A stretch of 64,000 nt of DNA from Candidatus Omnitrophota bacterium (lineage in GTDB: Bacteria > Omnitrophota > Gorgyraeia > Zapsychrales > Zapsychraceae). Positions 10,001 through 50,052 of the stretch are shown here, piece by piece. The translations under genes were made by a program, and so were the position numbers. Where the stretch lies: contig JAJDCB010000006.1 of assembly GCA_029261065.1 (NCBI GenBank), positions 64,284-128,283 of the forward strand, given 5' to 3'. The notes under the pieces are model-generated. The model saw only the letters and a list, made by a program, of their open reading frames with translations, was not told the origin of the DNA and made no database searches. Numbering within the stretch: the first letter of the stretch is position 1; each line of letters starts with the position of its first letter.

Positions 10001-10118
10001 AGGCATCAATAGGTAAACTCTTAAAAGAAAATACTCCAAACACCATAATTAAAACGGCTGCAATGAAGACTAAGAGCCTTTGTTTTAAAGAAAAATCTAC
10101 AATTTTATTTATCATCAA
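7014..10118 (-). CDS. czcA: Heavy-metal efflux RND pump, CzcA/CusA (HME) family
   Basis: 1034 aa, 12-TM RND topology; N-terminal IDAFPDVTPTLVQVFTE...APQEVEKLITYPVE is the HME-RND signature; downstream of the czcC- and czcB-like genes. Confidence 0.8.
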   Translation of the reverse strand: MMINKIVDFSLKQRLLVFIAAVLIMVFGVFSFKSLPIDAFPDVTPTLVQVFTETEGLAPQEVEKLITYPVEVSMNGLPDLKKIRSVSNFGLSIVNIYFEDDVNIYFARQLVQERLAQAKESLPEGLGEPAMGPITTGMGQVLFYYLDASTALSKGGTEYDGKELRTIQDWIIKFNLQTLPGVTEILSIGGEVKQYQVLVDPNRMIKWDLSLHDIVTAVEENNLNVGASFLEKGEEEFLVRSVGLVETKEDLEGIVVKTEENTPIFLRDVANIEFGAEINRGTASRDGMGEIVIGFILKLFGENTQEVINSVKERIGEINKILPEGVTLVPYYDQADLVEKCVSTVKNALFQGIVLVTLVLFFFMGNMRSSLIVVLSLPFSILWAFICMRYMGISANLMSLGGLAIGIGMMVDASIVIVENVYRFFEEKTKLEKKGSLIREACHEVSRPIFFAISIIIIVFLPLFTLQGVEGKMFTPLAYTISFAMVGSLIFSLTLAPALCFLIIKSDGKKEKENFIIAKAKKVYEPFLKLCVHHKKIPVLITVVLLVVGFVIFPFLGKEFIPKLNEGDMLVRATMAPSISLKESVNVVNILEKEFLKFDEVKHVISRIGRGEIGAHADPVNNSEIFIELKDQKKWKRKISSEKLVEEMSEKVGQVPGVQLNFSQPIAVAVDELVSGVKAQLAIKLFGSDLEVLKKKADEIKEVIEDVRGVADLQVDQITGQPQVQIIIDREKIARYGINVSEVQELVKVAIGGEEVGLVYEGQKQFAIYARFQKEFRKDIKAIKNLLVDAPGGQKIPLDQLADIKTVVGPRQISRENNQRFITIQCNVRGRDIGTFVEEAQKKVESQVDLPVGYIVHWGGQFELQQQANKRLIVVIPVTLLLIFLLLFMSFNSLKMALLILLNIPLALVGGIISLKLFNLNLSVPASIGFIALFGIAIENGLVLVTYFNELRAEGFSIHETVIKGALLRLRPVLMTALTTGLGLLPLVFSSGTGSEIQRPLAVVVIGGLFTSTFLTLLALPAFYGWFAPSLKEV

Positions 10119-10132
10119 AAATCTCCCATTAT

Positions 10133-11134
10133 TTAGTGATTATGTCCATCCCCAAAGGCCCCTTTTTGCATTTCAGACTTTAGAGCAAAACTTCCCTTTG
10201 AAACGATATGCTCTCCTTCATGCAAACCTTCTAATACTTCAACAAAATCACCAAACTCACGTCCCACTTTTATCTCACGTGCGCTAAACTCCTCTCCTTC
10301 AGAAACAAAGACAATAGATTCATTGCCTATCTCTTGGAGGGCTAACTGGGAGACAGATAGCACCTTGCCCTTTGTCGTAAAGATTAAATCACCTGTTACA
10401 AACATCCCTAAACGCAGAAGATGATTTTGATTATCAACTTCAGCGCGAATCTTTATTGTTTGGGTATCTCTATCGATACGGGGGGAAAGAAAAACAACCT
10501 TTCCCTTAAAAACATTATCTGGATAAGCGGTAGAATAAACATTCACCGATTGCCCCACACTAACAAAGCGTAAATCTTTCTCATAAACATCAAAAGAGAC
10601 ACGCAATAAATCCAAGTCAGCCAAACTTGCTAACGACCGAAGATTGTCAACACGCTCACCTTTTTTCACATGAATAACAATCACTGTTCCATGATGAGGA
10701 GCTAACATCGTTTCAACAGTACCATCCTCTTTCTCAATAGATAACATCGGCTCACCAACATCTATAATTGCTCCTGTCTGAACATAAATATCCTTAATAA
10801 CCCCATCATACTCTGACGTGATGTGGGTATTTTTATCGGTATCTTGCGCAATCTCACCATAGACTTTAATATTTTCTTCATATGCTCTTAGCTTAACTTC
10901 CTCAAAGGAAAGACCAATGATGTGTTGCATATCCTTGTTCACATGAAGCCCTTCATCCTCATGATCATCATGTGATGCGTGACTCTCTTGATCATGACCA
11001 TCATGGCCTTGAGCCCAAAGAAGTCTTGGCCCTAAAACTAAAGTGCTTAACAATATGAAACCGTAGACATATTTATTATTCATTGATAGACTCCTGTTAA
11101 TTATTATTTTCCTCAGGTAAAACAAATTCCCCAA
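10133..11134 (-). CDS. czcB: RND periplasmic adaptor (CzcB/CusB-like) with a His-rich N-terminus
   Basis: Signal peptide, His/Asp-rich tract HDGHDQESHASHDDHEDEGLH, beta-barrel/lipoyl MFP folds and a C-terminal GDGHNH. Confidence 0.75.
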   Translation of the reverse strand: MGNLFYLRKIIINRSLSMNNKYVYGFILLSTLVLGPRLLWAQGHDGHDQESHASHDDHEDEGLHVNKDMQHIIGLSFEEVKLRAYEENIKVYGEIAQDTDKNTHITSEYDGVIKDIYVQTGAIIDVGEPMLSIEKEDGTVETMLAPHHGTVIVIHVKKGERVDNLRSLASLADLDLLRVSFDVYEKDLRFVSVGQSVNVYSTAYPDNVFKGKVVFLSPRIDRDTQTIKIRAEVDNQNHLLRLGMFVTGDLIFTTKGKVLSVSQLALQEIGNESIVFVSEGEEFSAREIKVGREFGDFVEVLEGLHEGEHIVSKGSFALKSEMQKGAFGDGHNH

Positions 11135-12356
11135 TAACTTGCTCTAACTCAGCAATCTTAATTGTGTACTCTGATAAAGACTCAAAATACCGCTGTTTTG
11201 TTTCTTGATAAGCCTTTACATTTTCTAAATAGGATAAAAAGGTTACTTCTCCTTCCTCATACCCTAAAGTTGTAAACCTTAAAATTTCATTAGCCTCTTT
11301 AATGGCTTCAATGGATATATCATGACTCTTTTTAGCTAAATCGGTCTCATGAAAAGCGATGTACACATCTAATGCAACTTCATTTTCCATACGTTTAAGC
11401 AATTCTTGAGCTTTTTCTCGCTCTAACTTAACCTGTGTAATTTCATTACTCTTAAAATTCCAAATAGGAAGATCAAACGCGACACCAACACCCCCCTTAT
11501 ATACATTTTCCTCCCTTTCAACAAAAATGCTTAATCCGTAACTCGGCAATCGATCTCTTTTAGCTAACCTTAACTCCTTATCCTTTTTATTAAGTTCACT
11601 CTTTTGCGTAAAAACATCTGGCCGTTCCTCCAATGCCATCTTCAACAATTCATCAAAAGATTTATCTAAACGCTCATCTTGAAAATTATCTATAAGATTA
11701 TAATCTTTTGACATAGGCTGGCCTAAAAGGAGATTAAACTTTCCCTTATTTATGAGATACTTCTTTTGTGAAGATAGGCTTAAATGTCTTGCATTGATAA
11801 CCTCTAACTTGGCTCGAGATAGTTCATGATTAACAGCATCTCCGGAATCAAACTTTATTTTAATCTTGTCTAAGAACTTTTGATTTAATTCCAAATTTTC
11901 TTGGCTTAACTCAACGGCCTTCTTTGAAAGAAGTGTTTGCGTATATTGTTCCTTAATATCTTTAACCGTATTAAGCCAAACACTTTTAAAAGCAGCTTCT
12001 TGCTGTTTGAGTTCATCCTCTGCAATTTTCTTTCTCAAGCCCCTTTTTCCCCAACCATCAATAGGCTGTGTCACTCTTATTTCACTATCTAAATCTTTGG
12101 TACTAAAACTTGAGTCGCCATCCAAATCTTTAGCTAAATTACCTACCTCAACTTCAAGCTCGGGATTGTCCCATTTCTTAGAAATCTTAAATTGAGATTC
12201 GGCAATTTTTATATCCTGACGCGCCTCCACAACACTTGGATTATGATCAAAAGCGATCTTAAGAGCCTCCTTAAGAGACAGCTTCTCCCCGGCTTGGGCG
12301 TGCCCAGCTGTACAAATTAACAATGATATTATTAAAAAATAGATTTTCCTCTTCAT
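11097..12356 (-). CDS. czcC: TolC-family outer membrane factor (CzcC-like)
   Basis: Signal peptide; two-repeat coiled-coil-rich architecture of outer membrane efflux proteins; first gene of the czc-like operon. Confidence 0.65.
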   Translation of the reverse strand: MKRKIYFLIISLLICTAGHAQAGEKLSLKEALKIAFDHNPSVVEARQDIKIAESQFKISKKWDNPELEVEVGNLAKDLDGDSSFSTKDLDSEIRVTQPIDGWGKRGLRKKIAEDELKQQEAAFKSVWLNTVKDIKEQYTQTLLSKKAVELSQENLELNQKFLDKIKIKFDSGDAVNHELSRAKLEVINARHLSLSSQKKYLINKGKFNLLLGQPMSKDYNLIDNFQDERLDKSFDELLKMALEERPDVFTQKSELNKKDKELRLAKRDRLPSYGLSIFVEREENVYKGGVGVAFDLPIWNFKSNEITQVKLEREKAQELLKRMENEVALDVYIAFHETDLAKKSHDISIEAIKEANEILRFTTLGYEEGEVTFLSYLENVKAYQETKQRYFESLSEYTIKIAELEQVIGEFVLPEENNN

Positions 12357-12448: not shown

Positions 12449-12712
12449 TTATGAATTGGAAATGGGGGGGCGAAACGCGGTAGGAAGGATGGGTTCTTCG
12501 TAAGAAAAATCTTGAGCAGAAAAAAATGATGTGGTAACTTTTGGTAAATTTAAAGATTGATCACTTGTTAAGATAGCTCCATGACAAGACCCATGGCAAA
12601 TCACAATACCATGATGATGCTCCGTTTCCTCATTATGATCCGCACAGAATGCATCAAGTGGTATAAAGGAAACCACAAGGGCGATCAGAATTAGGATTCT
12701 TAAGAATTTCAT
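12449..12712 (-). CDS. Small secreted His/Cys-rich protein (family member A), putative periplasmic metal-binding or regulatory protein
   Basis: 87 aa; signal peptide, HHHGIVICHGSCHG motif, C-terminal DFSYEEPILPTAFRPPISNS; close paralogue at 48830..49111; sits at the head of the czcCBA operon. Confidence 0.55.
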   Translation of the reverse strand: MKFLRILILIALVVSFIPLDAFCADHNEETEHHHGIVICHGSCHGAILTSDQSLNLPKVTTSFFSAQDFSYEEPILPTAFRPPISNS

Positions 12713-13024: not shown

Positions 13025-16000
13025 CTAAACATTTTGTTGATTACGCTTAGAACGATTTATTCTACCATATTGCCATTCCAAGACAATACTTAATACAACT
13101 GGAACAAGTACAAGTGTAAAAATTGTTGAAACAAGCAAGCCTCCTACAACAACACTTCCTAATCCTCTATATAACTCACTTCCCGAACCAGGCATTAAAA
13201 CAAGCGGTAACATGCCGCCAACACTCGTTAACGTACTCATTAAGATGGGACGTACACGACTAATAACACTTGCCCTTATCGCTTCGTTTGGATGCATCGC
13301 TCCGTCTTCATTTAAGAAATTCAACGTCTGATGCACAAGTAAAATCGCATTGTTTACAACAACTCCAGCCAAAATCATAAATCCTAACATCGTTAAAACA
13401 TCTAAATTTTGTACTGGCATATAACGATCTAGTTCTGAGAAGAAATGTACAACCGACAAACCTAAAAATCCGCCAAAAGTGGCTAAAGGAACTGAGACCA
13501 TAATAACAAATGGGTAAACCCAACTTTGAAATAATACAACCATGGTTAAGTACACAACAAACAAAGCCAAAAACATCGAACTCGATAAAGTCCCTACTAA
13601 AGATCCATCTCCAAGCATTGCCCTTTTAAGTTCGTTTAACTTTCCAGCTGTTCCCGCCTGATTCATGTGAACGGATGGATGAATAGCTCCGGTCTCACGT
13701 AAATTTAAAACAACTTCATCAATTTTTTCAACCGCTTCTTGTAGCGTCATCCCTGGTGGCGGAGTTAACTGTAAGGTGACAGCTCTTTGACGATTGACAC
13801 GTTTAATCTGATTCGGTTGAGAGACACGTTTTATGGTAGCGACAGAAGCTAAATCAACAACTTGTCCATCTGGGGCTGCAAATAATGCATTGTTTAAAGC
13901 TTCTACTGGCACATCGCTTAACGCGCCATGTGTAATAATTTTTAAATCTTTAAGTTCACCTGCTACTTCATACTCGCCCACAAATAAACCATCGCCGTAA
14001 GCCCGAATAATTAATCCCAAATCTTGTCGTGTCATTCCCATTTCACTGAGACGTTCATCGTTTGCAACAATTTGTATCTCTGGTGTTGGTAAAGAGAAGT
14101 TCGCGGGTTCTGGTTGAATCGCATAAGGACCGAATGATTCGATTAAAGAACCCATCAGCGCTCCGGCGGATGCTGAGACATGTTCTAAATTATCTCCAGT
14201 TAAATCAATATTGATAGCGGAACCTGTCTGACCACCTGTACGAAACAAAGGAAACTGGAAAGAAAAGCTAAAAGTATCAGGAGCTTGATCTCCGGCCGTT
14301 GCGTAATTAAATAAATTAAGGGTGTCAACAACACGCTTATCTTCCTTTACAATAGCAACATGAAAGACACGTCCATCCCATCCAACAACAAAATAATGAT
14401 CCAATAGCGGCGCTTTAATGGTAGGAGCCCCTTCTTCCATACTCAACGGAAGATCAACACGACGATCTTTAACATTTTTATCTTCTCCTAAAACGCGCTC
14501 AATCTCAAACTTCGCCTCTGTCAATTCCCAAGCAGGCCTTACCCTCTCTTCTAATCGCTCCCCTAACTTATCTAATTGTTTAACGTTATACCCAGGTGGA
14601 GGAATCATTAAACCAAAAACGATATTTCGATTTCCTTTTGGCAAATAATCCATAGGCGGTAGAAGCAAGGCAATACCGATAACAGTAACCAACCCAAACG
14701 AAACAATTGTCACAATACGAAGAGACCATGTTGACGCTAGTTTATGAACAAAATTTCCAACAAAAACAGGCAAATTTTTAAGACTTAACTTACCCAAAAA
14801 CCCTTTCTTCTTTTCTTCTGGCTTTTTATTACTTTTAATTAATATGCGTGAAGCAGCTGAAGGAATAACCATAACCGAGACAATCAAACTTAAGCCAACC
14901 GCTGCCGCAATTGCTAAAACGATATCGCGAAATAATTGTCCGGCTGATTCTTGAATCAACAATACGGGTAAAAATACAACCAACGTTGTTAACGTTGAGG
15001 CCACAACAGCTCCGGACACTTCCTGCGCCCCATCCAAAGAGGATTGTTTAACACTCTTGCCCATCTCCAAATGACGAAAAATATTTTCAATCACAACAAT
15101 CGCATTATCAACAACCATCCCAACAGCAAAAGCCATTCCCGCTAAAGAAACAATATTTATACTTCGCCCTAAGACAACTAAGACAATGATACTTCCAATA
15201 ACAGATATTGGAATCGCTACGGCGATAATACCAATGGTTCTTAAAGAACGTAAAAACAGCAACAACGTAATGATCGATAAAAAGCCGCCTATAAAGATAT
15301 TAGATTGAACAAGACCAATGGCTTGATGAACATACTGTGTTGAGTCATATGTCTGCACAAGCTCAAGTATTCCGTTAAGCCCCAATTCTTTCGCATGTTG
15401 TTCCAGCAAAGCCCCTGGTTCGTTTAATTGATCACAAACCGCTTGAACCTCATCCATGGTCTTAATTAAATTTGCTCCTGTCTCAAGCTGAAAATTAAAA
15501 AACGGCATCACATGTCCACGCGCCCGGACATAATTCTGCCGTTCTTTGTATGTTTCTACAACCTCAGCTACATCTTTTAAGTAAACCGGGCCGCTTTCAT
15601 CACGTCGAATAATTAGACTCTTAACCTTTTCTATATTAGAGAAGCGCCCCAACATGCGAACGCGAACATCATTTTTTCCTTCTGATAATTTTCCACCGGA
15701 GTAATTTTCGTTATTTAAAAGTAACGTGTCATAAAGTTGCTGTATCGTCATCTCCCGTTGTGCTAACGACACTGGATCAATACGAATTTGAACCTCACGC
15801 TCACGCGCCCCTAATATACCAACAAGAGAAACTCCTGGGATGCGTTCAAAAATAGGCTTTAACTTCTTATCCATAAAATCAAATAACGTTGTTGTATCAA
15901 ACTCAGGATCTGACGAAGCTAATCCGATCCAAGCAATATAATCAATTGATTCTGGATCGACATCTTGAATAACAGGCCGATCGACTCCTTGTGGGTAATT

Positions 16001-16351
16001 TGGAACTTGGCTTAGCTTTTGATCAACCTCGCTCATCGCATCATCAATATCCGTACCCGTTCGAAACTCCAAACGAATCTGCCCTTGACCAGACTGACTT
16101 AAAGATGTCATAGCAACTAATCCAGCAATACCCTGCAACACCTCTTCTTGTTCATCGACAACTTCTGTTTCAATCTCCTGCGGACTAGAGTTTTCCCACG
16201 TTGTCGTTACAGCAATGACAACAGATTCAACCTCCGGCGCCATTTGAACGGGAACACGTGTGAAAGAAAGAATACCTGCAAGAACAACAAGAATAACCCC
16301 AACGGCAACTGTAATAGGTTGTTTGATACTAAATTCTATCCAAGATTTCAT
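13025..16351 (-). CDS. RND efflux permease, unusually long at 1108 aa
   Basis: 12-TM RND architecture with two large periplasmic loops; about 60-80 aa longer than typical AcrB/CzcA. Confidence 0.8.
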   Translation of the reverse strand: MKSWIEFSIKQPITVAVGVILVVLAGILSFTRVPVQMAPEVESVVIAVTTTWENSSPQEIETEVVDEQEEVLQGIAGLVAMTSLSQSGQGQIRLEFRTGTDIDDAMSEVDQKLSQVPNYPQGVDRPVIQDVDPESIDYIAWIGLASSDPEFDTTTLFDFMDKKLKPIFERIPGVSLVGILGAREREVQIRIDPVSLAQREMTIQQLYDTLLLNNENYSGGKLSEGKNDVRVRMLGRFSNIEKVKSLIIRRDESGPVYLKDVAEVVETYKERQNYVRARGHVMPFFNFQLETGANLIKTMDEVQAVCDQLNEPGALLEQHAKELGLNGILELVQTYDSTQYVHQAIGLVQSNIFIGGFLSIITLLLFLRSLRTIGIIAVAIPISVIGSIIVLVVLGRSINIVSLAGMAFAVGMVVDNAIVVIENIFRHLEMGKSVKQSSLDGAQEVSGAVVASTLTTLVVFLPVLLIQESAGQLFRDIVLAIAAAVGLSLIVSVMVIPSAASRILIKSNKKPEEKKKGFLGKLSLKNLPVFVGNFVHKLASTWSLRIVTIVSFGLVTVIGIALLLPPMDYLPKGNRNIVFGLMIPPPGYNVKQLDKLGERLEERVRPAWELTEAKFEIERVLGEDKNVKDRRVDLPLSMEEGAPTIKAPLLDHYFVVGWDGRVFHVAIVKEDKRVVDTLNLFNYATAGDQAPDTFSFSFQFPLFRTGGQTGSAINIDLTGDNLEHVSASAGALMGSLIESFGPYAIQPEPANFSLPTPEIQIVANDERLSEMGMTRQDLGLIIRAYGDGLFVGEYEVAGELKDLKIITHGALSDVPVEALNNALFAAPDGQVVDLASVATIKRVSQPNQIKRVNRQRAVTLQLTPPPGMTLQEAVEKIDEVVLNLRETGAIHPSVHMNQAGTAGKLNELKRAMLGDGSLVGTLSSSMFLALFVVYLTMVVLFQSWVYPFVIMVSVPLATFGGFLGLSVVHFFSELDRYMPVQNLDVLTMLGFMILAGVVVNNAILLVHQTLNFLNEDGAMHPNEAIRASVISRVRPILMSTLTSVGGMLPLVLMPGSGSELYRGLGSVVVGGLLVSTIFTLVLVPVVLSIVLEWQYGRINRSKRNQQNV

Positions 16352-42429: not shown

Positions 42430-42481
42430 CGCAACATGTTTTCATGTTGCGAAAAGGTAATGCCAGCTTTTGGGCATTACC
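42430..42481 (-). terminator. Two tandem perfect stem-loops; hairpin 2 (GGTAATGCC-8 nt-GGCATTACC) is followed on the minus strand by UUUU
   Basis: CGCAACATG-TTTT-CATGTTGCG (42430..42451) and GGTAATGCC-AGCTTTTG-GGCATTACC (42456..42481), nested in a larger imperfect palindrome TTTTTGGGCG...CGCCCAAAAA (42414..42491). Confidence 0.6.
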
Positions 42482-43172
42482 GCCCAAAAAACAAATAATC
42501 CGTATGTTCTTCATTGTTAAGAAATTTATGTATAAATGTTATCGGCTCAACACGCACCTCACGAAACACACCCCGCAAAGCATCTGCAAAAGGAGAATCT
42601 TGGGCATAAGACCAAACAGCAAGCACGCCATTCTCGTTTAAATGTTTACATGCCGCCTCAAGCCCTTCTCTAGTATAAAATTGTCCAATCTTCGTATCTA
42701 ATCGCTCATCAGGAGAATGATCGACATCAATGAGAATCACATCAAATTTCTTTTCTGGTTCACCAGCCAACTGCTCATAAATATCTCCTTGGACAATTTT
42801 CAGACGATCATCGCCCAAAAGCTCTTTAGATAACGGCACCAATCCTTCATTCATCCACGAAATAACCTGCGGTAGAAATTCAACAACCTCAAGAGATTCA
42901 ACTTGTTTGCTACCTAATGCTTCATACGCCGTATATCCTAACCCCAAACCTCCCACTAAAACAGTTAAATCATTCCCCCCATGCATCTTTAGGGCAATCT
43001 TTGATAATGCACGCTCAGAATCCGTATGATAACTACTCATTAAAAATTCATGATTAAGTGTAATTTCTGTCACTATTATTGTTGGATCTTGTAATGACCG
43101 ACGACGTCTTAAACACAACATCCCCAAAGAGGTTTGCTCATAGGCGAGTATTTCTAAATTTGATTCTGCCAT
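42477..43172 (-). CDS. Spermidine/spermine synthase-family protein (short form lacking the N-terminal domain)
   Basis: Methyltransferase-like glycine-rich LVGGLGLGYTAYEA and the acidic D..D region FDVILIDVDHSPD typical of polyamine aminopropyltransferases. Confidence 0.5.
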   Translation of the reverse strand: MAESNLEILAYEQTSLGMLCLRRRRSLQDPTIIVTEITLNHEFLMSSYHTDSERALSKIALKMHGGNDLTVLVGGLGLGYTAYEALGSKQVESLEVVEFLPQVISWMNEGLVPLSKELLGDDRLKIVQGDIYEQLAGEPEKKFDVILIDVDHSPDERLDTKIGQFYTREGLEAACKHLNENGVLAVWSYAQDSPFADALRGVFREVRVEPITFIHKFLNNEEHTDYLFFGR

Positions 43173-43344: not shown

Positions 43345-43440
43345 CTTCAGGTTATAAGAACGTTCAAAGTCTTTGCTGGTGTTTGCTGGTATTTACTTGT
43401 TCTCACGCCTGTTTTGTTACACATACTTTATCGCATTTTC
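43345..43440. repeat. Upstream element R3: CCTTCAGGTTATAAGAACGTT block, three heptamers (TTTGCTG, TTTGCTG, TTTACTT) at 10-bp spacing, TTGTTACACATACTTTATCGC
   Basis: Same family as R1 and R2; its 3' end overlaps the stop codon of the znuB-like gene. Confidence 0.6.
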
Positions 43441-44243
43441 CAACTAATAACAGATATTAGCAGTAACATCACCCCAAACACACAAACCACACTTGCTCCC
43501 GTTGGTAAATCGAAAGAATAGGAAACAATCATTCCTATAATACTTCCGACAGTACCAATACTCCAACCAAGAATCAATCTTACACGAAGATTATCTGCTA
43601 AAATCATCGCACATACAGCTGGGATGACTAAAAAGGAAAAAACAAGCAAGACTCCTGCAATTTTAACAGAACTTGTCACAACAAAAGCAAAAGTAACATA
43701 AAAAAGAAAATCCCAGCCTCTCACGTTCAAACCTTGCTCAAAAGCTTTCTCTGGATTTTGAGAAATTAGATAGAATTGTTTTCTAAAAACAAAATGAATC
43801 ACACCCATTAGAGAGTAGATAATTAATATTCTCCCTACTTCTTTTGGACTTACCAACAAAATGTTTCCAAGAAGCGATTGACGAATATGCTCTGTTCCCT
43901 CGCCCGAATAACTCAACACAATAAGCATCAGAGCCGAAGAAACAACATACACAATTCCAATAATAGCCTCATGAGGAATCTTTTGTTTTTTGAATCGTGT
44001 TAAAGCAAATAATCCAGCACCAATGACTGTAAAGGTTAAAGAAATCATATAACCTTGTATGCTTTCCATTTCAAAACCGAACAATATTGCACAACTAGCC
44101 CCTAACACAGCGATCTGGGCAAGTGCTAAGTCAACGAAAATAACCTGACGCTCGATAACATGAAATCCCAAATAGGCATGAATACCAGTTAACACTAAAC
44201 ATGCCATGAAAGGAATTATCATTATTTGCAAGAACTCAATCAT
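43428..44243 (-). CDS. znuB: Metal (Zn/Mn) ABC transporter permease, ZnuB/TroC family
   Basis: ~270 aa, 8-9 TM helices, the conserved family profile. Confidence 0.75.
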   Translation of the reverse strand: MIEFLQIMIIPFMACLVLTGIHAYLGFHVIERQVIFVDLALAQIAVLGASCAILFGFEMESIQGYMISLTFTVIGAGLFALTRFKKQKIPHEAIIGIVYVVSSALMLIVLSYSGEGTEHIRQSLLGNILLVSPKEVGRILIIYSLMGVIHFVFRKQFYLISQNPEKAFEQGLNVRGWDFLFYVTFAFVVTSSVKIAGVLLVFSFLVIPAVCAMILADNLRVRLILGWSIGTVGSIIGMIVSYSFDLPTGASVVCVFGVMLLLISVISWKMR

Positions 44244-45156
44244 GATTAAACCCTTCCTTTAGATTTTTAACAATAAAATCCATCAAACTAAAATAATCAC
44301 TTACTTCTTTGGTTCCGCCAACAGAAATAGGCGTAACAACAACATTAACCTTTACTCTTTCGGCTACATACTGAGCTGCATCGTCTTTGTACACATTCTC
44401 CACAAGAATGACTTTTACTTTCTCTCGATTAACAACATCGATAATACTTTTTAGATGTGTTGGAGAAGGTGGCACCCCTGGTTTGGGTTCTAACTCTCCA
44501 ACAATTTCAAACCCAAATCGATTTGCAAAGTATACCAAGCTTTTATGATACGTAATAACTTTTTCACCAACATAGGGAGATAATATTTCTTCCCATTCAA
44601 TCAACTTTTCATCAATTAAAGTACTGAACCTTGACAAATTTCTATCAAATATTAATTTGTCTTCTGGTGAAATTCTACTTAATCGATTAGCAATACTTGT
44701 TGCGACAAACTTCATATTCAACGGGTCTAACCAATAATGCGGATTACCACTAGCATGAATATCTCCCATAGAACGGTCGACTTGTCTAAGGACATTTAAC
44801 GGTTTGATTCCTATTGAAGCATCCAAGTGTCCATCACGACCAATCTGAATATTAGGATTACGAGAACCCTCCAATATCAATGGTTCATAGCCAACTTCTA
44901 GTTCTAATCCTATACGAATAAACAAGTCCGCTCTTTTAGCTTTAATCATGTAGGATGGTTTAGCTTGTAGAAAATGATAATTCTGATTACCTTTTCCTAA
45001 ACTATAGACCTTAACCTTATCTCCACCAATATACTCGACAACAGATTTCAAATCCGTTGTTGTTGTTACAACATTGATAACTTCTGCCTGGGTAGGCGTT
45101 GCTGAAAACAGCAACGCGTACCCAAGCAATATAAGAGTACTTATTATTTTGCTCAT
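44236..45156 (-). CDS. znuA: Metal ABC transporter substrate-binding protein, ZnuA/TroA cluster-9 family
   Basis: Signal peptide, conserved HYWLDP motif, length ~300 aa. Confidence 0.8.
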   Translation of the reverse strand: MSKIISTLILLGYALLFSATPTQAEVINVVTTTTDLKSVVEYIGGDKVKVYSLGKGNQNYHFLQAKPSYMIKAKRADLFIRIGLELEVGYEPLILEGSRNPNIQIGRDGHLDASIGIKPLNVLRQVDRSMGDIHASGNPHYWLDPLNMKFVATSIANRLSRISPEDKLIFDRNLSRFSTLIDEKLIEWEEILSPYVGEKVITYHKSLVYFANRFGFEIVGELEPKPGVPPSPTHLKSIIDVVNREKVKVILVENVYKDDAAQYVAERVKVNVVVTPISVGGTKEVSDYFSLMDFIVKNLKEGFNHD

Positions 45157-45165
45157 AACTCCCCC

Positions 45166-46389
45166 TTACCGATACGCATGTGGTTTATGTGGCCCGATAG
45201 AAAAGTCGAGCTGTAACCACACTGTATTATCATCTGAGGTTTCGTTATCAGTATGCGTAAACATTGCCCTCCAAAACACATACTCACTTTGTGCAAATGT
45301 AAGACCCGTAGAATAAGCATGCGTGTCTACTTCTGAGCTGCTCGGTGTTTGACTAAAATCATAACGGCCAAAAGCCCACCAACGATCAGTAAGTTGTTGT
45401 TCAAGAGATGTAAACATACCCCAAGAATTAATGTCATCGCCTGCTGCTTGTTCACGAACATTAAACAACGCTTCTGTATGTGATGTCGTACGTTTATTAA
45501 CAAACAACTCTGTGCTATTAATGGTTAAATCAACACCCGTGATTCGTGATTCTGCACCATTGCCATCACCATTTTCTCCAAAGGAAAAAGTGTTTCCAAT
45601 TTCAAATGAAGTTTCATCTGTGATGTCGAAGAAATTCTTAAGATGAGCTAAATAAACGGTCTCCCCATCTTCTCCTCCACCAAAGACTGTTGAACCATTA
45701 TTAAACGCTTCGAGTGTAATCTCAGAATAGATATCGGCAGGGTTAAGAATCAAATAACTTAAACTTGCTCCGGCCTCACTGTTTCCTTCTTCTCCAAGAA
45801 AATTCTGAACAACAAGCGGATAATCACTCCAAGGTAATTGATGTAAATGCATCTTATTTGTTTTTCCCATGTATGGCCTAAACTTTCCAAACTTACCTTG
45901 TAAATTCTCAATGGGTGTTTCAAGCAAAGTCAGATAACCTTCTTCTAAAGCAACCTCTGTACTGCCATCTTCATTTTCAATGGCAACAATCACATCACCA
46001 CGCGCATAGGTGTCAACATTAGCAGAAAATGCCACCTCTACTTCACGCATGTTAAATTGATTATCACCCTCCCCACCGTTTTTATCAGACTTATAAATAA
46101 AGTCGCCGATAACACTAACTTGCGGGTTAAGAGTAGATAAGGCGCTTACCGGTTGATTTATGTCAGCTTTCTCCAACCCTTCAACACGCATTTGCAACCG
46201 TTCTATTTCTTGCTTATCTTTAGACGATTGAATTTGTTTTTCTTGTTCAAGCTGTTCAATTCGTCCTTGCATCTCACCCATCTGAACTTGCATGGTTTGA
46301 AACATACTTTTTAATTCAGATAACTCATCTGCATGTGCACAAGAGCACATAGCAAAAAGCACAAAAGCACTTAATATAAACTTTTTCAT
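45166..46389 (-). CDS. Outer membrane porin-like protein with an N-terminal coiled-coil (paralogue of 35791..37137)
   Basis: Signal peptide, ~50-aa coiled-coil (ELSELKSMFQTMQVQMGEMQGRIEQLEQEKQ), beta-rich remainder; stop 10 bp before the znuA-like start. Confidence 0.5.
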   Translation of the reverse strand: MKKFILSAFVLFAMCSCAHADELSELKSMFQTMQVQMGEMQGRIEQLEQEKQIQSSKDKQEIERLQMRVEGLEKADINQPVSALSTLNPQVSVIGDFIYKSDKNGGEGDNQFNMREVEVAFSANVDTYARGDVIVAIENEDGSTEVALEEGYLTLLETPIENLQGKFGKFRPYMGKTNKMHLHQLPWSDYPLVVQNFLGEEGNSEAGASLSYLILNPADIYSEITLEAFNNGSTVFGGGEDGETVYLAHLKNFFDITDETSFEIGNTFSFGENGDGNGAESRITGVDLTINSTELFVNKRTTSHTEALFNVREQAAGDDINSWGMFTSLEQQLTDRWWAFGRYDFSQTPSSSEVDTHAYSTGLTFAQSEYVFWRAMFTHTDNETSDDNTVWLQLDFSIGPHKPHAYR

Positions 46390-46517: not shown

Positions 46518-46814
46518 TTAAACTAAACTTGGAGGGCCCCGAGGGGATGGAAGGTAAAAATCAACCCTTGATTTGATTGATTGAAAAACATTTGTTACAT
46601 GACGCTGAACCTTAATTTTTAATGCTGCAATTGCAACAACAATAGAAATTAAAGCTTGCACTAAAAATTGATAAAGTGGACATTCCTGCTCTGTCCCATG
46701 TTCATGATCGTGAACTTGGCTGTGAAAATACTCACCCCCAATAGACAAAAAAGCAAAGCCCAAAAGCGCAAAGCAAAGAAATATAATTGGAATTTTTTTA
46801 TTTATTTTAATCAT
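46518..46814 (-). CDS. Small His-rich membrane protein (family member C)
   Basis: 98 aa; TM, HSQVHDHEHGTEQEC, second TM, C-terminal DFYLPSPRGPPSL resembling the C-terminal motif of 12449..12712 and 48830..49111. Confidence 0.45.
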   Translation of the reverse strand: MIKINKKIPIIFLCFALLGFAFLSIGGEYFHSQVHDHEHGTEQECPLYQFLVQALISIVVAIAALKIKVQRHVTNVFQSIKSRVDFYLPSPRGPPSLV

Positions 46815-46965
46815 TTTTTACTCAATATTGAAGTATGAGGCTATCAAAATTAATCAAATCTGTCAATCAACCTATTTCATAAGCAAAAAAAATTTTAAAT
46901 CTCTTCTTTCAACCTACATTTCATAAAACAGCAATCGTAATCGGGGAACACCTAACGACCTAACA

Positions 46966-47373
46966 CTATTGATTCATATTCTCAATCCAAATACGTATAG
47001 GCAGCAATGCATAAGCTGCAAAGACAGATATAGCCAAAAGAATTGTGGAGACAATAAGAATTCTTTTTTGCCATTTGAGAATTCTCTGATCTTTGATATT
47101 GCAAGCCGCCCCCTCTTGCGCCATCTTGTTCCCTAACTGTGATAAAGCATACCAGCAATAACCAAGCATCAATGCCGTTATACCGAAGGTATAAACCTTG
47201 TATTTCGCGATCGTTCCTAACCAAGGAACATTAGAAAATAACGAAGCCACAGCGCCTCCTAATCCTATTGAAACAAGGGCTATAGGTAACGCACAACAGG
47301 TCGTTGAGAGAATCGCTAAACCTGTTCCGGTAAAGAGCGTTGTATTTGTCTTGATATTATTTTTTTTATCCAT
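46966..47373 (-). CDS. MerT-like metal transport membrane protein
   Basis: 135 aa, 3-4 TM helices, vicinal cysteines in TM1 (STTCCALP) as in mercuric transporter MerT. Confidence 0.6.
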   Translation of the reverse strand: MDKKNNIKTNTTLFTGTGLAILSTTCCALPIALVSIGLGGAVASLFSNVPWLGTIAKYKVYTFGITALMLGYCWYALSQLGNKMAQEGAACNIKDQRILKWQKRILIVSTILLAISVFAAYALLPIRIWIENMNQ

Positions 47374-48243
47374 TTAAAAACTCCATCCCATTCCGACATC
47401 TAATTGATGGCCGAATGAAACTGATTCATCTAATGCATTTTCATAAATAGGAATGGTATAAACAATTTTGGCAATCATAGAGCCTTGGAAATAAACGAAG
47501 CCCGGCCCCAACATCACCCGAGTCCCAGCATTATTCCCAGAAATCTTTGAACCACCTTCCTTATACCTAAGCCCATAATCAAGTTGAATAGATGCCCCAG
47601 CACTCTTTTTTCCATTATGATAAATTGCTTTTCCTAAAGTCATATCGAGACCAAATAAATTCCCCTCATGTTGATCTCTCGTTCCCTCATTATTGATCCA
47701 ATAGAAAAAATCAACCCCAGCTAAATAATAAGGACTTTCAGCGCCATAACTCAAGGACACCCCCACATCTGTACTCCCATCCCCAATCGGATAATCACCA
47801 CTTGTTTTACCTGACGGAATACGAAGGCTTGGTGTAAAGCTAAAGTTATTCGTCCAATTTCTGTGGTTGATATATTTTCTTAAAGGCGTTCCGATAATAA
47901 TGTCACCCAAACCGCGGTCATGCTGCCTGACAGCTTTTCCACCAATTTCAGTCACACGCATTTTATCGACGTATGGAATCTTAATAGTGATCCGTTTGGA
48001 TCGATCCCACGTATAAACACCTTCCAACCATGTTGTATCAACTCGCCGTTCCTTGCCTAAAGGATTTGCGATTTCGTCATCGCCAGACAACAATGTATCG
48101 GAGGCACGGTATTCATGGCGAATCTGAAATCCTTTTCCCCCAGCCCAGCGAGGCGCTTCGTTCATCACAGGTTGATCGGCGCGAGCTGGAGTTATCAAAG
48201 CCAGACACACTCCTATACTGAGTAATATTTTAAACCATTTCAT
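47374..48243 (-). CDS. Putative outer membrane beta-barrel protein
   Basis: Signal peptide, alternating amphipathic beta-strand pattern, C-terminal aromatic residue (GMGWSF). Confidence 0.4.
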   Translation of the reverse strand: MKWFKILLSIGVCLALITPARADQPVMNEAPRWAGGKGFQIRHEYRASDTLLSGDDEIANPLGKERRVDTTWLEGVYTWDRSKRITIKIPYVDKMRVTEIGGKAVRQHDRGLGDIIIGTPLRKYINHRNWTNNFSFTPSLRIPSGKTSGDYPIGDGSTDVGVSLSYGAESPYYLAGVDFFYWINNEGTRDQHEGNLFGLDMTLGKAIYHNGKKSAGASIQLDYGLRYKEGGSKISGNNAGTRVMLGPGFVYFQGSMIAKIVYTIPIYENALDESVSFGHQLDVGMGWSF

Positions 48244-48246
48244 ACA

Positions 48247-48777
48247 CTACTCGCCTTCTATGATTGTATTAACTTCAGCCAATGGAATTGTATTTTTTTT
48301 GAGAGCCTTTATAGACTGTTCATTAACGAAAAGCTGCAACTCATAAGTTTGATTCTGCACCAACTGTTGCGCTTTATCACCTGTTAATTCGTACAACTTT
48401 TCTTGATCGTCATTAACAATGAACTTACGGTCGCCTTCATCAACAGATTGTCCCTTAACACGCATATGAAAAACTCTTGGTTCATATCCGCTCTTGCGAA
48501 TTGTTTTGGACATTTCTTGCAGATTTACGTCCTCGCCTTCTTTTAAATGAATGGTGATGATTTGATTTTCGATGTCTGATTCAACCCCCTTATGCCCTTG
48601 AGATTGATCAATGCAGCCCATCTTTGACAATCCCTTTTGCATGCCAAAGGAACAATACGCACAAACAGCTCCGTTAATTTCCAGCTTTGCCTGATTCGGC
48701 GCCACTTGCACTGCGGAGGCCCATACTTGGGTACAACTCAGAAGTAATATAGTAAATATAGAAAATATATGTTTCAT
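48247..48777 (-). CDS. Periplasmic heavy-metal-associated (HMA/MerP-like) domain protein with an extra C-terminal domain
   Basis: Signal peptide; GAVCAYCSFG fits the HMA GxxCxxC metal-binding loop with the expected downstream beta-alpha-beta pattern. Confidence 0.5.
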   Translation of the reverse strand: MKHIFSIFTILLLSCTQVWASAVQVAPNQAKLEINGAVCAYCSFGMQKGLSKMGCIDQSQGHKGVESDIENQIITIHLKEGEDVNLQEMSKTIRKSGYEPRVFHMRVKGQSVDEGDRKFIVNDDQEKLYELTGDKAQQLVQNQTYELQLFVNEQSIKALKKNTIPLAEVNTIIEGE

Positions 48778-48829
48778 AGGAATTCTCCTTTGAGACTAAT
48801 AATTAGTTGAATAAAGATTGGAAATAAAA

Positions 48830-49111
48830 CTATGAAATAGAGATTGGGGGGCGATGCTCTGTAGGTAAGACCGGCTCATCGTAGAAAAAATCTTGAGCCG
48901 AGAAGAAATGTGTGGATACTTCCGGTAAATTAATAGATTGCCTACTACTCAAAACCGCCCCAGAACATGCAAAATGACATAATACAATTCCATGCTGATG
49001 CTCCGTCTCCTCATGATGATCTTCGCAAAACGCGTCGAGCTGCAGGGAGGATACGACGAGGGCAATTAGAATTATGCTTTTTAAGAACTTCATAACACGA
49101 TCAGGATACAT
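48830..49111 (-). CDS. Small secreted His/Cys-rich protein (family member B)
   Basis: 93 aa; roughly 60 percent identical to 12449..12712 over signal peptide, EHQHGIVLCHFACSG and C-terminal DFFYDEPVLPTEHRPPISIS. Confidence 0.55.
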   Translation of the reverse strand: MYPDRVMKFLKSIILIALVVSSLQLDAFCEDHHEETEHQHGIVLCHFACSGAVLSSRQSINLPEVSTHFFSAQDFFYDEPVLPTEHRPPISIS

Positions 49112-49311
49112 CAGAATATATTTTGAGTCAAGGGGTGGGAAGGATCAATGATATTTATAAAAACACCTAACTTCCTTTGCTAAAATTTATAAATGAAATG
49201 CGATTGAATCTGAAAACTTTAGGTTATGAGCCTATTATTCATTTGTTTTAAATGTTGGAGTTAAAAAGGTTAATGTGTAACAGGTAAGGTATTACGCCAA
49301 ATTTGTGTCAA

Positions 49312-50052
49312 TTATTTGAAAGACTTTCCATGCCGCTTTGGTTTCTTAAACATTAACATACACCAAGTATATCGTAGCAAGTTCATGAAAAAGTTTGAGC
49401 TGTAGTATTCTGACAACATATATTTGCTATATCTCTCAGCATGATTTCCCCACTCTTCTTTTTTATACCCCTTTCCAACTCTTTGGTAATGGTGACCTAC
49501 TTCATGATACACCACCTCCGCTAAATACATTGTATAAACAAAAGGACATAAAATCATAAACCATTTAGGATGAAATTCATAAATACTCTTTGCATAGACA
49601 TTCACAAAAGGAACCTTAGCACCCTCTCGCTTCCCATGGTATGTGCCCCATGCTTCTTTTGTAGCCTTTCTTCCAACAGGCGATGAACCAATAACTATCT
49701 TTGATAATCCTACGAAATGGTCACCTGGAACTATTTTTAAAATATTTCCGATTAAATATTCGTAATTAAAACGCCCTATTGATTTATCCTTTAATACTTC
49801 ATCTACAACATCTATGCGTATATTTGATTTTTCTGAAGTATCTTCCTTATTTGAAGTTAGAAACCCCCAGCAAAGGTTTAACAGATAACTTATTCCCAAT
49901 GCAAATAAAAGATTCTTGGTAAGAACGACGTAGTTGTCATTGAAAAATGATATTATAAAAATTATTATCCATGAGAACAAAATAATTTTGAAAATAATAG
50001 CACCTACAAAAAAAACATTTATTCTTATATCTTGTTTATCCAAAACAATCAT
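49312..50052 (-). CDS. Membrane-anchored putative zinc metallopeptidase (HExxH)
   Basis: Two N-terminal TM helices; C-terminal AEVVYHEVGHHY contains HEVGH; no family recognised. Confidence 0.4.
   Translation of the reverse strand: MIVLDKQDIRINVFFVGAIIFKIILFSWIIIFIISFFNDNYVVLTKNLLFALGISYLLNLCWGFLTSNKEDTSEKSNIRIDVVDEVLKDKSIGRFNYEYLIGNILKIVPGDHFVGLSKIVIGSSPVGRKATKEAWGTYHGKREGAKVPFVNVYAKSIYEFHPKWFMILCPFVYTMYLAEVVYHEVGHHYQRVGKGYKKEEWGNHAERYSKYMLSEYYSSNFFMNLLRYTWCMLMFKKPKRHGKSFK

Follow-up and report, generated by a model that had tools for sequence, protein, structure and literature searches.

What is a mer-like set of genes for when neither MerA nor MerR accompanies it? The question is raised by positions 46518–49111 of the 64,000-nucleotide stretch of contig JAJDCB010000006.1 from a Candidatus Omnitrophota bacterium (the window, GC content ~37%), where five open reading frames (ORFs) of 93, 176, 289, 135, and 98 aa follow one another on the minus strand. 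An earlier description made from the letters alone (the sequence-only reading) had taken them for one five-gene cluster, a metal route across both membranes built of a MerT-like transporter, a periplasmic heavy-metal-associated (HMA) protein, an outer-membrane (OM) barrel, and two small His/Cys-rich proteins, serving uptake or trafficking rather than mercury detoxification. All five ORFs were found as described, and tblastn of the 64-kb window with real sequences as queries gave no match to MerA, MerR, MerP, MerC, or CsoR, which agrees with the claimed lack of MerA and MerR. The layout had to be revised. The 98-aa gene belongs to the adjacent operon, so that the real arrangement is 4 + (1 + 3) genes, operon 1 occupying 49093–46966 and operon 2 46814–43428. 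With a probability of roughly one half, we read the region as two adjacent metal-transport operons, each with its own small exported leader peptide, of which operon 1 is a soft-metal stress module probably working inward. The features of operon 1 are as follows:

49103–49131, minus strand: promoter-like element TTGACT-17 nt-TATCCT (consensus scan).
48830–49093, minus strand: leader 1, an 87-aa exported peptide, a CutF/CruR-like upstream ORF (start set by the alignment with its paralog).
48247–48777, minus strand: metallochaperone-like HMA protein of 176 aa with a signal peptide, an HMA-fold, and a C-terminal oligonucleotide/oligosaccharide-binding (OB)-like beta domain (AlphaFold2 (AF2), Foldseek, and profile).
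47374–48243, minus strand: 289-aa OM beta-barrel carrying a signal peptide, the motifs (A/H)QPVM..APRW and GDGSTD, and a C-terminal Phe (AF2, Foldseek, and precomputed PF13557).
46966–47373, minus strand: MerT-like inner-membrane protein of 135 aa (Pfam MerT profile, alignment, and hydropathy).

The gaps between the leader, HMA, barrel, and MerT-like genes are 52, 3, and 0 nt, the MerT-like start codon abutting the barrel stop codon, and 151 nt then precede the 98-aa ORF. The 93-aa ORF starts most likely at 49093 and encodes 87 aa, because the similarity to a paralog elsewhere in the window begins exactly at that ATG. The other border was set by comparison with homologous loci (designated L with a number). 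The MerT-like gene was taken as the module end because L087, L088, and L090 keep the HMA–barrel–MerT order with other genes downstream; in these close relatives, leader 2, as the 98-aa product is called here, is absent downstream of the module. Leader 2 was assigned to the second operon because L091 and L092 keep the small ORF together with an outer-membrane protein (OMP) gene, a ZnuA-like gene, and a permease gene, with unrelated genes upstream.

The identity of the three structural proteins was established from alignments, profiles, and predicted structures. The 135-aa protein carries PF02411 in its precomputed Pfam annotation, and 96 relatives were returned by the search. In an alignment of the window protein with 20 relatives and two canonical MerT proteins from real mer operons (23 sequences), the vicinal pair C26–C27, noted before as membrane cysteines in STTCC, was invariant (23/23) and was located by hydropathy inside the first hydrophobic segment, residues 18–36 (transmembrane segment 1, TM1). 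A profile of the family run against the PDB sequences gave nothing meaningful. Judged by these alignments, the protein represents a distinct clade of the MerT superfamily and not an orthologous MerT, because the CC pair is invariant but there is one loop Cys (C91) and the identity to canonical MerT is 18–22%.

In the 176-aa protein, the GAVCAYC motif lies behind a signal peptide, in line with the earlier description of a secreted HMA protein. The Pfam HMA model (PF00403) did not match it at E ≤ 1, and the MerP model TIGR02052 gave E 8e-4 with 19.8 bits (cut-off 92.6); the family profile matched the HMA domains of Bacillus subtilis CopA (1p6t, 2rml) with E 2e-8. The AF2 model, built from a nine-sequence alignment, reached a predicted local distance difference test score (pLDDT) of 84.8 and showed strands at residues 29–35, 65–68, and 73–78, helices at 40–51 and 86–95, and a further strand from residue 99, which is the beta-alpha-beta-beta-alpha-beta order of a ferredoxin-like fold. 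For this N-terminal domain, Foldseek returned CopZ (2qif), MerP (1osd), Atx1, and 1fvq with target-normalized TM-scores of 0.7–0.8 and a root-mean-square deviation of ~2 Å. The CxxC motif is located between strand 1 and helix 1 as G36-x-V38-C39-x-x-C42, with G36, V38, C39, and C42 invariant and Val replacing the usual Met/Thr before the first Cys. The extra domain of ~90 aa attributed to this protein does exist; its size is ~75 aa, its AF2 model is OB-like with weak Foldseek matches to OB proteins (IF1, S1), and only about a quarter of the homologous loci carry one. At 50% clustering, 1.84 billion proteins yielded 324 representatives of the HMA-like family. One protein of the representative library, P0282 (4991 aa), contains eight stretches matching HMA residues 97–156, so that a giant protein, too, harbors this OB-like C-terminal domain, in repeated copies.

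The 289-aa protein ends in ...GWSF and adopts a barrel fold in AF2 (pLDDT 90.9), as claimed for a C-terminal-Phe OM barrel. Its top PDB neighbors were FapF (5o65) and the COG4313 channel Pput2725 (4rl8), both 12-stranded, with TM-scores of 0.64–0.74. The length falls within the 270–320 range, and DSSP counted 14 strand segments in the model versus 12 strands in the COG4313 channels. PF13557 is present in the precomputed annotation of the barrel and of many relatives, hmmscan gave no match at E ≤ 1, and the link of the family profile to 4rl8 by sequence was marginal (E 0.069 only). Thirty-nine columns are invariant across 58 sequences. Among the invariant residues are Q24-P25-V26-M27..A30-P31-R32-W33, which precede the first barrel strand; the model is of low confidence at residues 18–26. 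The COG4313 channels are characterized by an N-terminal segment that fills the lumen ahead of strand 1. A tblastn search with the barrel against 72,556 plasmids gave no match, and the idea of a common plasmid-borne resistance gene of cultured bacteria was rejected on this ground. The exact proteins of the cluster are singletons in a collection of 15 billion proteins. The MerT-like, HMA, and barrel assignments thus withstood the profile and structure comparisons taken together; a failure of the first two under profile search had been named by the sequence-only reading as its own refutation.

The HMA and barrel genes travel together, often with a MerT-like gene. The barrel alignment was scanned against one genome per species, which gave 108 relatives, and 80 loci were kept. 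A 60%-identical relative (L002) was disregarded as it lies on a frameshifted, low-coverage contig. Of the 80 loci, 79 have an HMA-like gene directly next to the barrel gene, and in 57 a MerT-like gene belongs to the unit. The usual order is HMA–barrel–MerT with abutting or overlapping ORFs, and HMA–MerT–barrel in Neomarinimicrobiota. About 15 phylum-level names occur in the record titles, and nearly all carriers are marine metagenome-assembled genomes (MAGs). They come from Alpha- and Gammaproteobacteria, Planctomycetota, Myxococcota, Bdellovibrionota, Verrucomicrobiota, Lentisphaerota, Kiritimatiellota, Neomarinimicrobiota, Margulisbacteria, and others; the few cultured carriers include Shewanella benthica KT99, Halobacteriovorax marinus, and Porticoccus sp. 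W117. The nearest named relative is a Ca. Omnitrophota MAG with an 83% identical barrel, and in comparison with an alphaproteobacterial MAG and another MAG, the barrel is 40–43% and the HMA protein 20–27% identical. Such tight synteny conserved over many phyla fits a route across both membranes; the inclusion of the small His/Cys proteins among its trafficking parts did not stand.

The module is duplicated or extended in some lineages. Extra HMA-like genes were observed downstream of it in L021 (7405–9278), L041 (4211–4783), and Neomarinimicrobiota, e.g., L061 (9784–10158), and L021 also has a second barrel-like gene (307 aa) downstream. Genes for ArsP_1 permeases and small Thioredoxin_3 proteins recur directly behind the MerT-like one, in many cases preceded by a csoR of the operon (L005, 6376–7503; L007, 7518–8558; L020, 6388–6663), some of the ArsP_1 proteins starting with a CC motif; both may be further module components in those lineages.

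What, then, are the small His/Cys proteins? Leader 1 consists of a signal sequence, a His-rich stretch, CHFAC (CxxxC), 38 residues, R-P-P, 4 residues, and the stop. Its paralog was found by the ORF scan at another place in the window:

12449–12712, minus strand: paralog of leader 1, 87 aa, with CHGSC ... FRPPISNS.

The two peptides share 70% of their amino acids, and the DNA similarity is confined to the ORF, from ATG to stop. The paralog heads a CusCBA-like operon of the resistance-nodulation-division (RND) type with genes for an outer-membrane efflux protein (11097–12356), an adaptor (10133–11134), and an RND pump (7014–10118), recognized by the Pfam models OEP, HlyD_D23, and ACR_tran, respectively. 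The pump scored 1168 bits with TIGR00914 (CusA/CzcA; cut-off 701). Its TM4 motif AIGIGMMVDASIVIVEN follows the pattern AIG...DA...EN, which we take to be CusA-like by the Nies classification. Another RND permease of 1108 aa is encoded at 13025–16351 on the minus strand; it matches ACR_tran in two separate stretches, the best covering residues 5–605 only, which suggests a large insertion or a divergent segment in its middle or C-terminal half.

Published criteria define CutF-like peptides by four features, namely fewer than 150 aa, a PP among the 15 C-terminal residues, a signal for export, and a downstream gene oriented the same way, and all four are present in leader 1, its paralog, and leader 2. 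Hydropathy revealed N-terminal hydrophobic segments in all three (87, 87, and 98 aa). The C-termini are arrest-like (HRPP + 4 in leader 1, FRPP + 4 in the paralog, RGPP + 3 in leader 2), the metal motifs CHFAC and CHGSC of leader 1 and the paralog each follow a His-rich stretch, and the next gene on the same strand begins after 52, 92, and 128 nt, respectively. In Rhodobacter, CutF combines a Sec signal, a CxxxC motif, and a Pro-rich C-terminus, and when copper makes it stall in the course of export, the cutO ribosome-binding site becomes accessible. CruR controls a downstream transporter by the copper-dependent release of translation arrest and Rho termination. Both small His/Cys proteins of the window fit such metal-sensing leader peptides, to judge from their architecture, and not parts of the transport route.

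The same kind of gene precedes the module elsewhere. In most loci, an ORF of 90–145 aa with a hydrophobic N-terminus, several Cys/His, and a Pro-rich C-terminus (e.g., ...YRPPIxHLS or ...PPxPPPK..) lies directly upstream; 33 of 74 loci have an ORF that qualifies under strict leader criteria derived from the CutF and CruR papers, with a spacing of mostly 37–40 residues between the last Cys and the final PP and a tail of 4–5. Between leader 1 and the module leaders of distant taxa, only the initiator Met, C23, C39, C43, R81, P82, P83, and S87 are invariant. A leader was found in 3 of 20 loci with a MerR or CsoR regulator beside the module versus 34 of 53 without one (Fisher p = 2e-4, the loci being not phylogenetically independent), and this near mutual exclusion is expected if the small ORF is itself a regulator. 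The sole DUF2946 match among the module leaders was that of L085, and a weak one (E 0.028, 15.6 bits vs. 23.7).

There is a very slim chance that the small proteins are instead stable metal-binding parts of the route in the periplasm or membrane, as the sequence-only reading implied. They do carry export signals and metal-ligand motifs, RNA folding gave no switch, and CzcI-type small proteins upstream of RND operons were discussed as metal-binding regulators in the CutF paper. A stable part is hard to match with conservation limited to Cys and a C-terminal RPP at fixed spacing in an otherwise variable peptide, with the near mutual exclusion of these ORFs and transcription factors, or with their constant first position in three kinds of operon; CutF, for its part, undergoes degradation when exported and works in cis only. 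Nor do the two small proteins of the former cluster form one His/Cys family: no homology emerged when the two leader types were compared profile to profile (hhalign probability of 0.2% for leader 1 against the 98-aa protein), and this grouping was rejected. Within 64 kb, one genome has three or more leaders of this kind, a paralogous pair included, which suggests a leader-based regulon instead of transcription factors.

Upstream of leader 1, the element at 49103–49131 may serve as the promoter of the operon. Its hexamers are kept in a Ca. Omnitrophota relative (L088) and the flanks are not, and the -10 element lies 9 nt before the leader ATG. Across the window (49103–49131), L088 (~2110–2140), and L092 (~1287–1322), the -10-like hexamers are placed 6–9 nt before leader ATGs, with no visible Shine–Dalgarno sequence. 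Since the -10 is so near the ATG, the leader mRNAs may be without a 5′ untranslated region or have one that is very short.

The metal was approached through the company the module keeps. Among 150 same-strand neighbors sampled, we counted 10 MerR-family regulators, 4 CsoR, 4 ArsP_1, 3 DUF4396, 3 Thioredoxin_3, 2 multicopper oxidases, and 2 DsbD-like proteins. In L021, the order is CusB–CusA–HMA–barrel–MerT–HMA–HMA–OMP–thioredoxin–DsbD–CueR-like with an integrase alongside, and in L058 the module lies with a CcoG-like protein, DsbD, and thioredoxin. The CsoR copies beside the module show the x-C-H-C pattern, which is typical of Cu(I) sensors. A Cys near position 79, as is typical of divalent-metal sensors, occurs in some of the MerR-family neighbors but not in others; an attempt to assign these neighbors to Hg, Cu, Zn, or Cd failed. 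In this genome, the effector is most likely Cu(I)/Ag(I), as the paralog of leader 1 heads a pump of the CusA/CzcA family, and co-induction with efflux is suggested. Taken together, the sequence neighborhoods point to a soft-metal stress unit rather than plain nutrient uptake, the substrate being a thiophilic metal, most probably Cu(I)/Ag(I) here and possibly Hg(II) in other genomes. The earlier conclusion of uptake rather than detoxification is therefore not established: in relatives, the module adjoins MerR/CsoR genes, CusBA, multicopper oxidases, thioredoxin/DsbD, and a few complete mer operons, and in the window its leader has a paralog, 70% identical, at the head of a CusA-type efflux operon.

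Mercury deserves separate consideration, as the best family matches are MerT/MerTP and MerP. The module could be a mercury-specific MerT/MerP pair with its own OM entry channel, supplying a MerA whose gene lies in another part of the genome, and mer operons indeed lie beside it in L003 (complete), L051 (partial), and L020, with MerA-like genes near in four loci. We regard this as quite improbable, given that at most loci mer genes are absent from the surrounding 6 kb, that the neighboring CsoR (x-C-H-C), multicopper oxidase, and CusBA genes point to copper, that the paralogous leader in the window heads a CusA-type pump, and that the canonical mer operon adjacent to the module in L003 has its own MerT and MerP.

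Nutritional scavenging of copper was weighed on the same neighborhoods. The module would then import scarce copper for cuproenzymes, with a CruR-like leader switching it on at low metal and off at high. The window contains no MerA-type cytoplasmic sink, the carriers are mostly marine and often oligotrophic or deep-sea MAGs, the Halobacteriovorax module lies beside a CcoG-like Fer4_18/Fer4_5 protein, and genes with cytochrome-c domains are neighbors in four loci. CruR, a DUF2946-type leader able to control an uptake system, provides a precedent. Against this, MerR-family activators or CsoR repressors, which turn genes on under metal excess, share the operons in ~20 loci; CusBA, multicopper oxidase, and integrase-bearing islands adjoin the module; and the close paralogy of leader 1 to the efflux-pump leader suggests co-induction. 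We consider scavenging unlikely, and a soft-metal stress module remains our preferred interpretation.

How might such a module work? Metal stress would switch it on, alongside the CusCBA-like pump with the paralogous leader. The Cys/His motif of leader 1 would sense the metal while the nascent chain is exported, and the C-terminal R-P-P would pause the ribosome and so set the expression of the downstream genes. The COG4313/FapF-like barrel is proposed to pass the metal across the outer membrane, the HMA-fold protein to bind it in the periplasm via its CxxC, and the MerT-like protein to carry it across the cytoplasmic membrane on the vicinal Cys pair, the transfer occurring by thiol ligand exchange, as from MerP to MerT. 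By analogy to mer systems, the direction is most likely inward, a reading that is most consistent with the known uptake by MerT-superfamily proteins and COG4313 channels; to our knowledge, all characterized MerT-superfamily proteins import.

A number of findings weigh against this interpretation. The MerT-like protein scored just below the Pfam MerT (PF02411) cut-off of 32.9 (32.3 bits, E 1.2e-7, near full length) and far below those of NCBIfam MerT (NF010314; 29.8 vs. 150) and MerTP (35.5 vs. 180), at E 5e-7 to 7e-9, and in its TM2–TM3 loop C91, the single conserved Cys, corresponds to the second of the canonical pair, the first position being non-Cys throughout the clade. The invariant residues of the barrel are mostly Arg, Lys, Asp, Gly, and Pro, with no Cys and one Met, i.e., not obvious soft-metal ligands, and characterized COG4313 channels are tied to hydrophobic substrates. 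No Pfam or NCBIfam family was found for the small proteins of the window, PF11162 (DUF2946) being unmatched for all three leaders; the distance from Cys to PP in leader 1 is 38 residues versus ~45 between the corresponding motifs in CruR/CutF; and the intergenic RNA between leader 1 and the HMA gene gave no significant stem-loop (folding z = -0.5), so that together with the z-scores of -1.75 for the paralog and -2.0 for leader 2 no convincing RNA switch emerged. The MerR-family neighbors scored alike on the ZntR, MerR, CueR, and CadR models, all below the equivalog cut-offs, copper import fits poorly with control by CsoR, and the comparisons between loci are not phylogenetically independent. 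Finally, ~30% of the loci, some of them on long contigs, have HMA and barrel genes without a MerT-like gene; the invariant core is therefore the OM/periplasm step, and the cytoplasmic passage may be optional.

This last pattern, an invariant HMA–barrel pair from which the MerT-like gene may be missing, would also suit an outward or periplasmic detoxification, in which Cu(I) or Hg(II) of the periplasm is gathered by the HMA protein and passed to the barrel for release outside, and the MerT-like protein feeds in metal from the membrane or cytoplasm or is an accessory. Co-location with CusBA, CsoR/CueR-like sensors of the kind found with efflux genes, and the frequent neighborhood of thioredoxin and DsbD, which maintain periplasmic thiols, are in keeping with it. 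Such a scheme includes no energy-coupling component, a passive barrel would be unable to export against a gradient, the MerT superfamily is generally known for import, and COG4313 channels have been described as uptake channels. We therefore rate the outward scheme as improbable and retain the inward soft-metal module.

The second operon is likewise headed by a leader peptide. Its features are as follows:

46518–46814, minus strand: leader 2, a 98-aa peptide (counterparts in L091 and L092).
45166–46389, minus strand: secreted protein of 407 aa, presumed to be in the OM, with a coiled coil at the N-terminus and a C-terminal part rich in beta structure (gene order in relatives).
44236–45156, minus strand: ZnuA-family periplasmic metal-binding protein (Pfam ZnuA, E 3.7e-51).
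43428–44243, minus strand: ABC-3 family permease of a metal ATP-binding cassette (ABC) transporter (Pfam ABC-3, E 3.9e-38).

Leader 2 has an N-terminal transmembrane segment, HSQVHDHEH..EC, a second hydrophobic segment, and the end ...PRGPPSLV, i.e., R-G-P-P followed by three residues; the distance from Cys to PP, counted from the sequence, is 48, close to the DUF2946 geometry. In L091 and L092, both metagenomic, the OMP is 77–80% identical, and the leader homologs terminate in ...PRGPPLFA (L091) and ...LRAPPIA (L092), so that the L092 peptide shows exactly the RAPP motif of DUF2946. The 407-aa protein has no Pfam or NCBIfam family, and the nearest NCBIfam model of the ZnuA-like protein is AztC, below its cut-off. 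From these sequence matches, we propose that operon 2 encodes a leader-controlled OMP/ZnuA-like/ABC-3 importer of the zinc type. There is no ATPase gene in it, and the next ORF (42477–43172) is SpeE-like (spermidine synthase).

A few features of the wider window were also recorded. Just upstream of the module, at 49312–50052 on the minus strand, lies a gene for a membrane-associated protein of 246 aa with an HEVGH (HExxH) motif and no family match, whose neighborhood to the module is not kept in relatives. The whole window (1–64000) displays an unusually strong strand bias, with 53 of the 56 ORFs of at least 120 aa on the minus strand, and the GC skew is negative in each 2-kb bin (-0.07 to -0.31).

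All the parts of operon 1 belong to known superfamilies (MerT, HMA, COG4313-like, and CutF/CruR-like); their combination was found neither in literature searches (MerT-like with OM and copper, MerT with Phenol_MetA_deg, MerT/MerP uptake, and MerT with CsoR and HMA) nor in the CutF and CruR papers, and the CutF supplementary text makes no mention of MerT, HMA, or PF13557. It is conceivable, if on balance doubtful, that HMA and barrel, with or without the MerT-like protein and usually headed by a leader, form an unrecognized widespread soft-metal envelope pathway of marine bacteria, including the first dedicated Mer-type OM channel for Cu(I)/Hg(II). The crossing of the outer membrane by Cu(I), Ag(I), and Hg(II) in Gram-negative bacteria is poorly known, and the operon offers a concrete testable candidate. 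We know of no dedicated OM component described for mercury. Neomarinimicrobiota have been reported to carry mercury-methylation genes. Should the module import Hg(II), inorganic mercury might enter abundant ocean lineages, Neomarinimicrobiota included, by this route. The leaders would extend the CutF/CruR mode to new downstream operons, the MerT-like module and the ZnuA-type importer, and to lineages outside Proteobacteria and Bacteroidota.

How does the locus compare with known systems? With MerT of the Tn21/Tn501-type mer operons, the 135-aa protein shares the vicinal Cys pair in TM1 and three alignable hydrophobic segments; it differs in having a single Cys in the cytoplasmic loop, where MerT has two, an insertion of 6 residues behind TM1, and scores below the curated cut-offs. 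The HMA protein resembles MerP as a secreted HMA-fold partner with CxxC, presumably acting by thiol ligand exchange, and departs from it by GxVCxxC, an insert after helix 1, and, often, the OB-like C-terminal domain. At the level of the operon, the module differs from mer systems of this type by a dedicated OM barrel gene, by the absence of MerA and MerR nearby, and by a leader peptide in place of a transcription factor. Pput2725, SphA, and TcpY (COG4313/Phenol_MetA_deg) and FapF serve hydrophobic organics or amyloid secretion and not metals, in contrast to the barrel clade of the module, which adjoins a CxxC HMA gene in 79 of 80 loci.

The leaders resemble CutF (Rhodobacter capsulatus cutFOG), CruR (Bordetella pertussis bp2923), and CopL in their size below 150 aa, export signal, Cys motif (CxxxC, as in CutF), C-terminal R-x-P-P or Pro-rich sequence at a fixed distance from Cys, and position as the first gene of a metal-homeostasis operon. 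Unlike in the CutF mode, no significant stem-loop covers the ribosome-binding site downstream of leader 1, and the downstream HMA/barrel/MerT-like and OMP/ZnuA-like genes are unmentioned in either the CutF or the CruR paper. As to the plan of the whole operon, a further parallel is offered by the Pco/Cop copper-resistance systems. These consist of an OM protein (PcoB/CopB), a periplasmic copper protein (CopC), and an inner-membrane importer (CopD). Their protein families are unrelated to those of the module, and the window operon has no multicopper oxidase; nevertheless, both would be metal-inducible units in which an OM barrel, a periplasmic carrier, and an inner-membrane uptake protein are combined in a resistance context.

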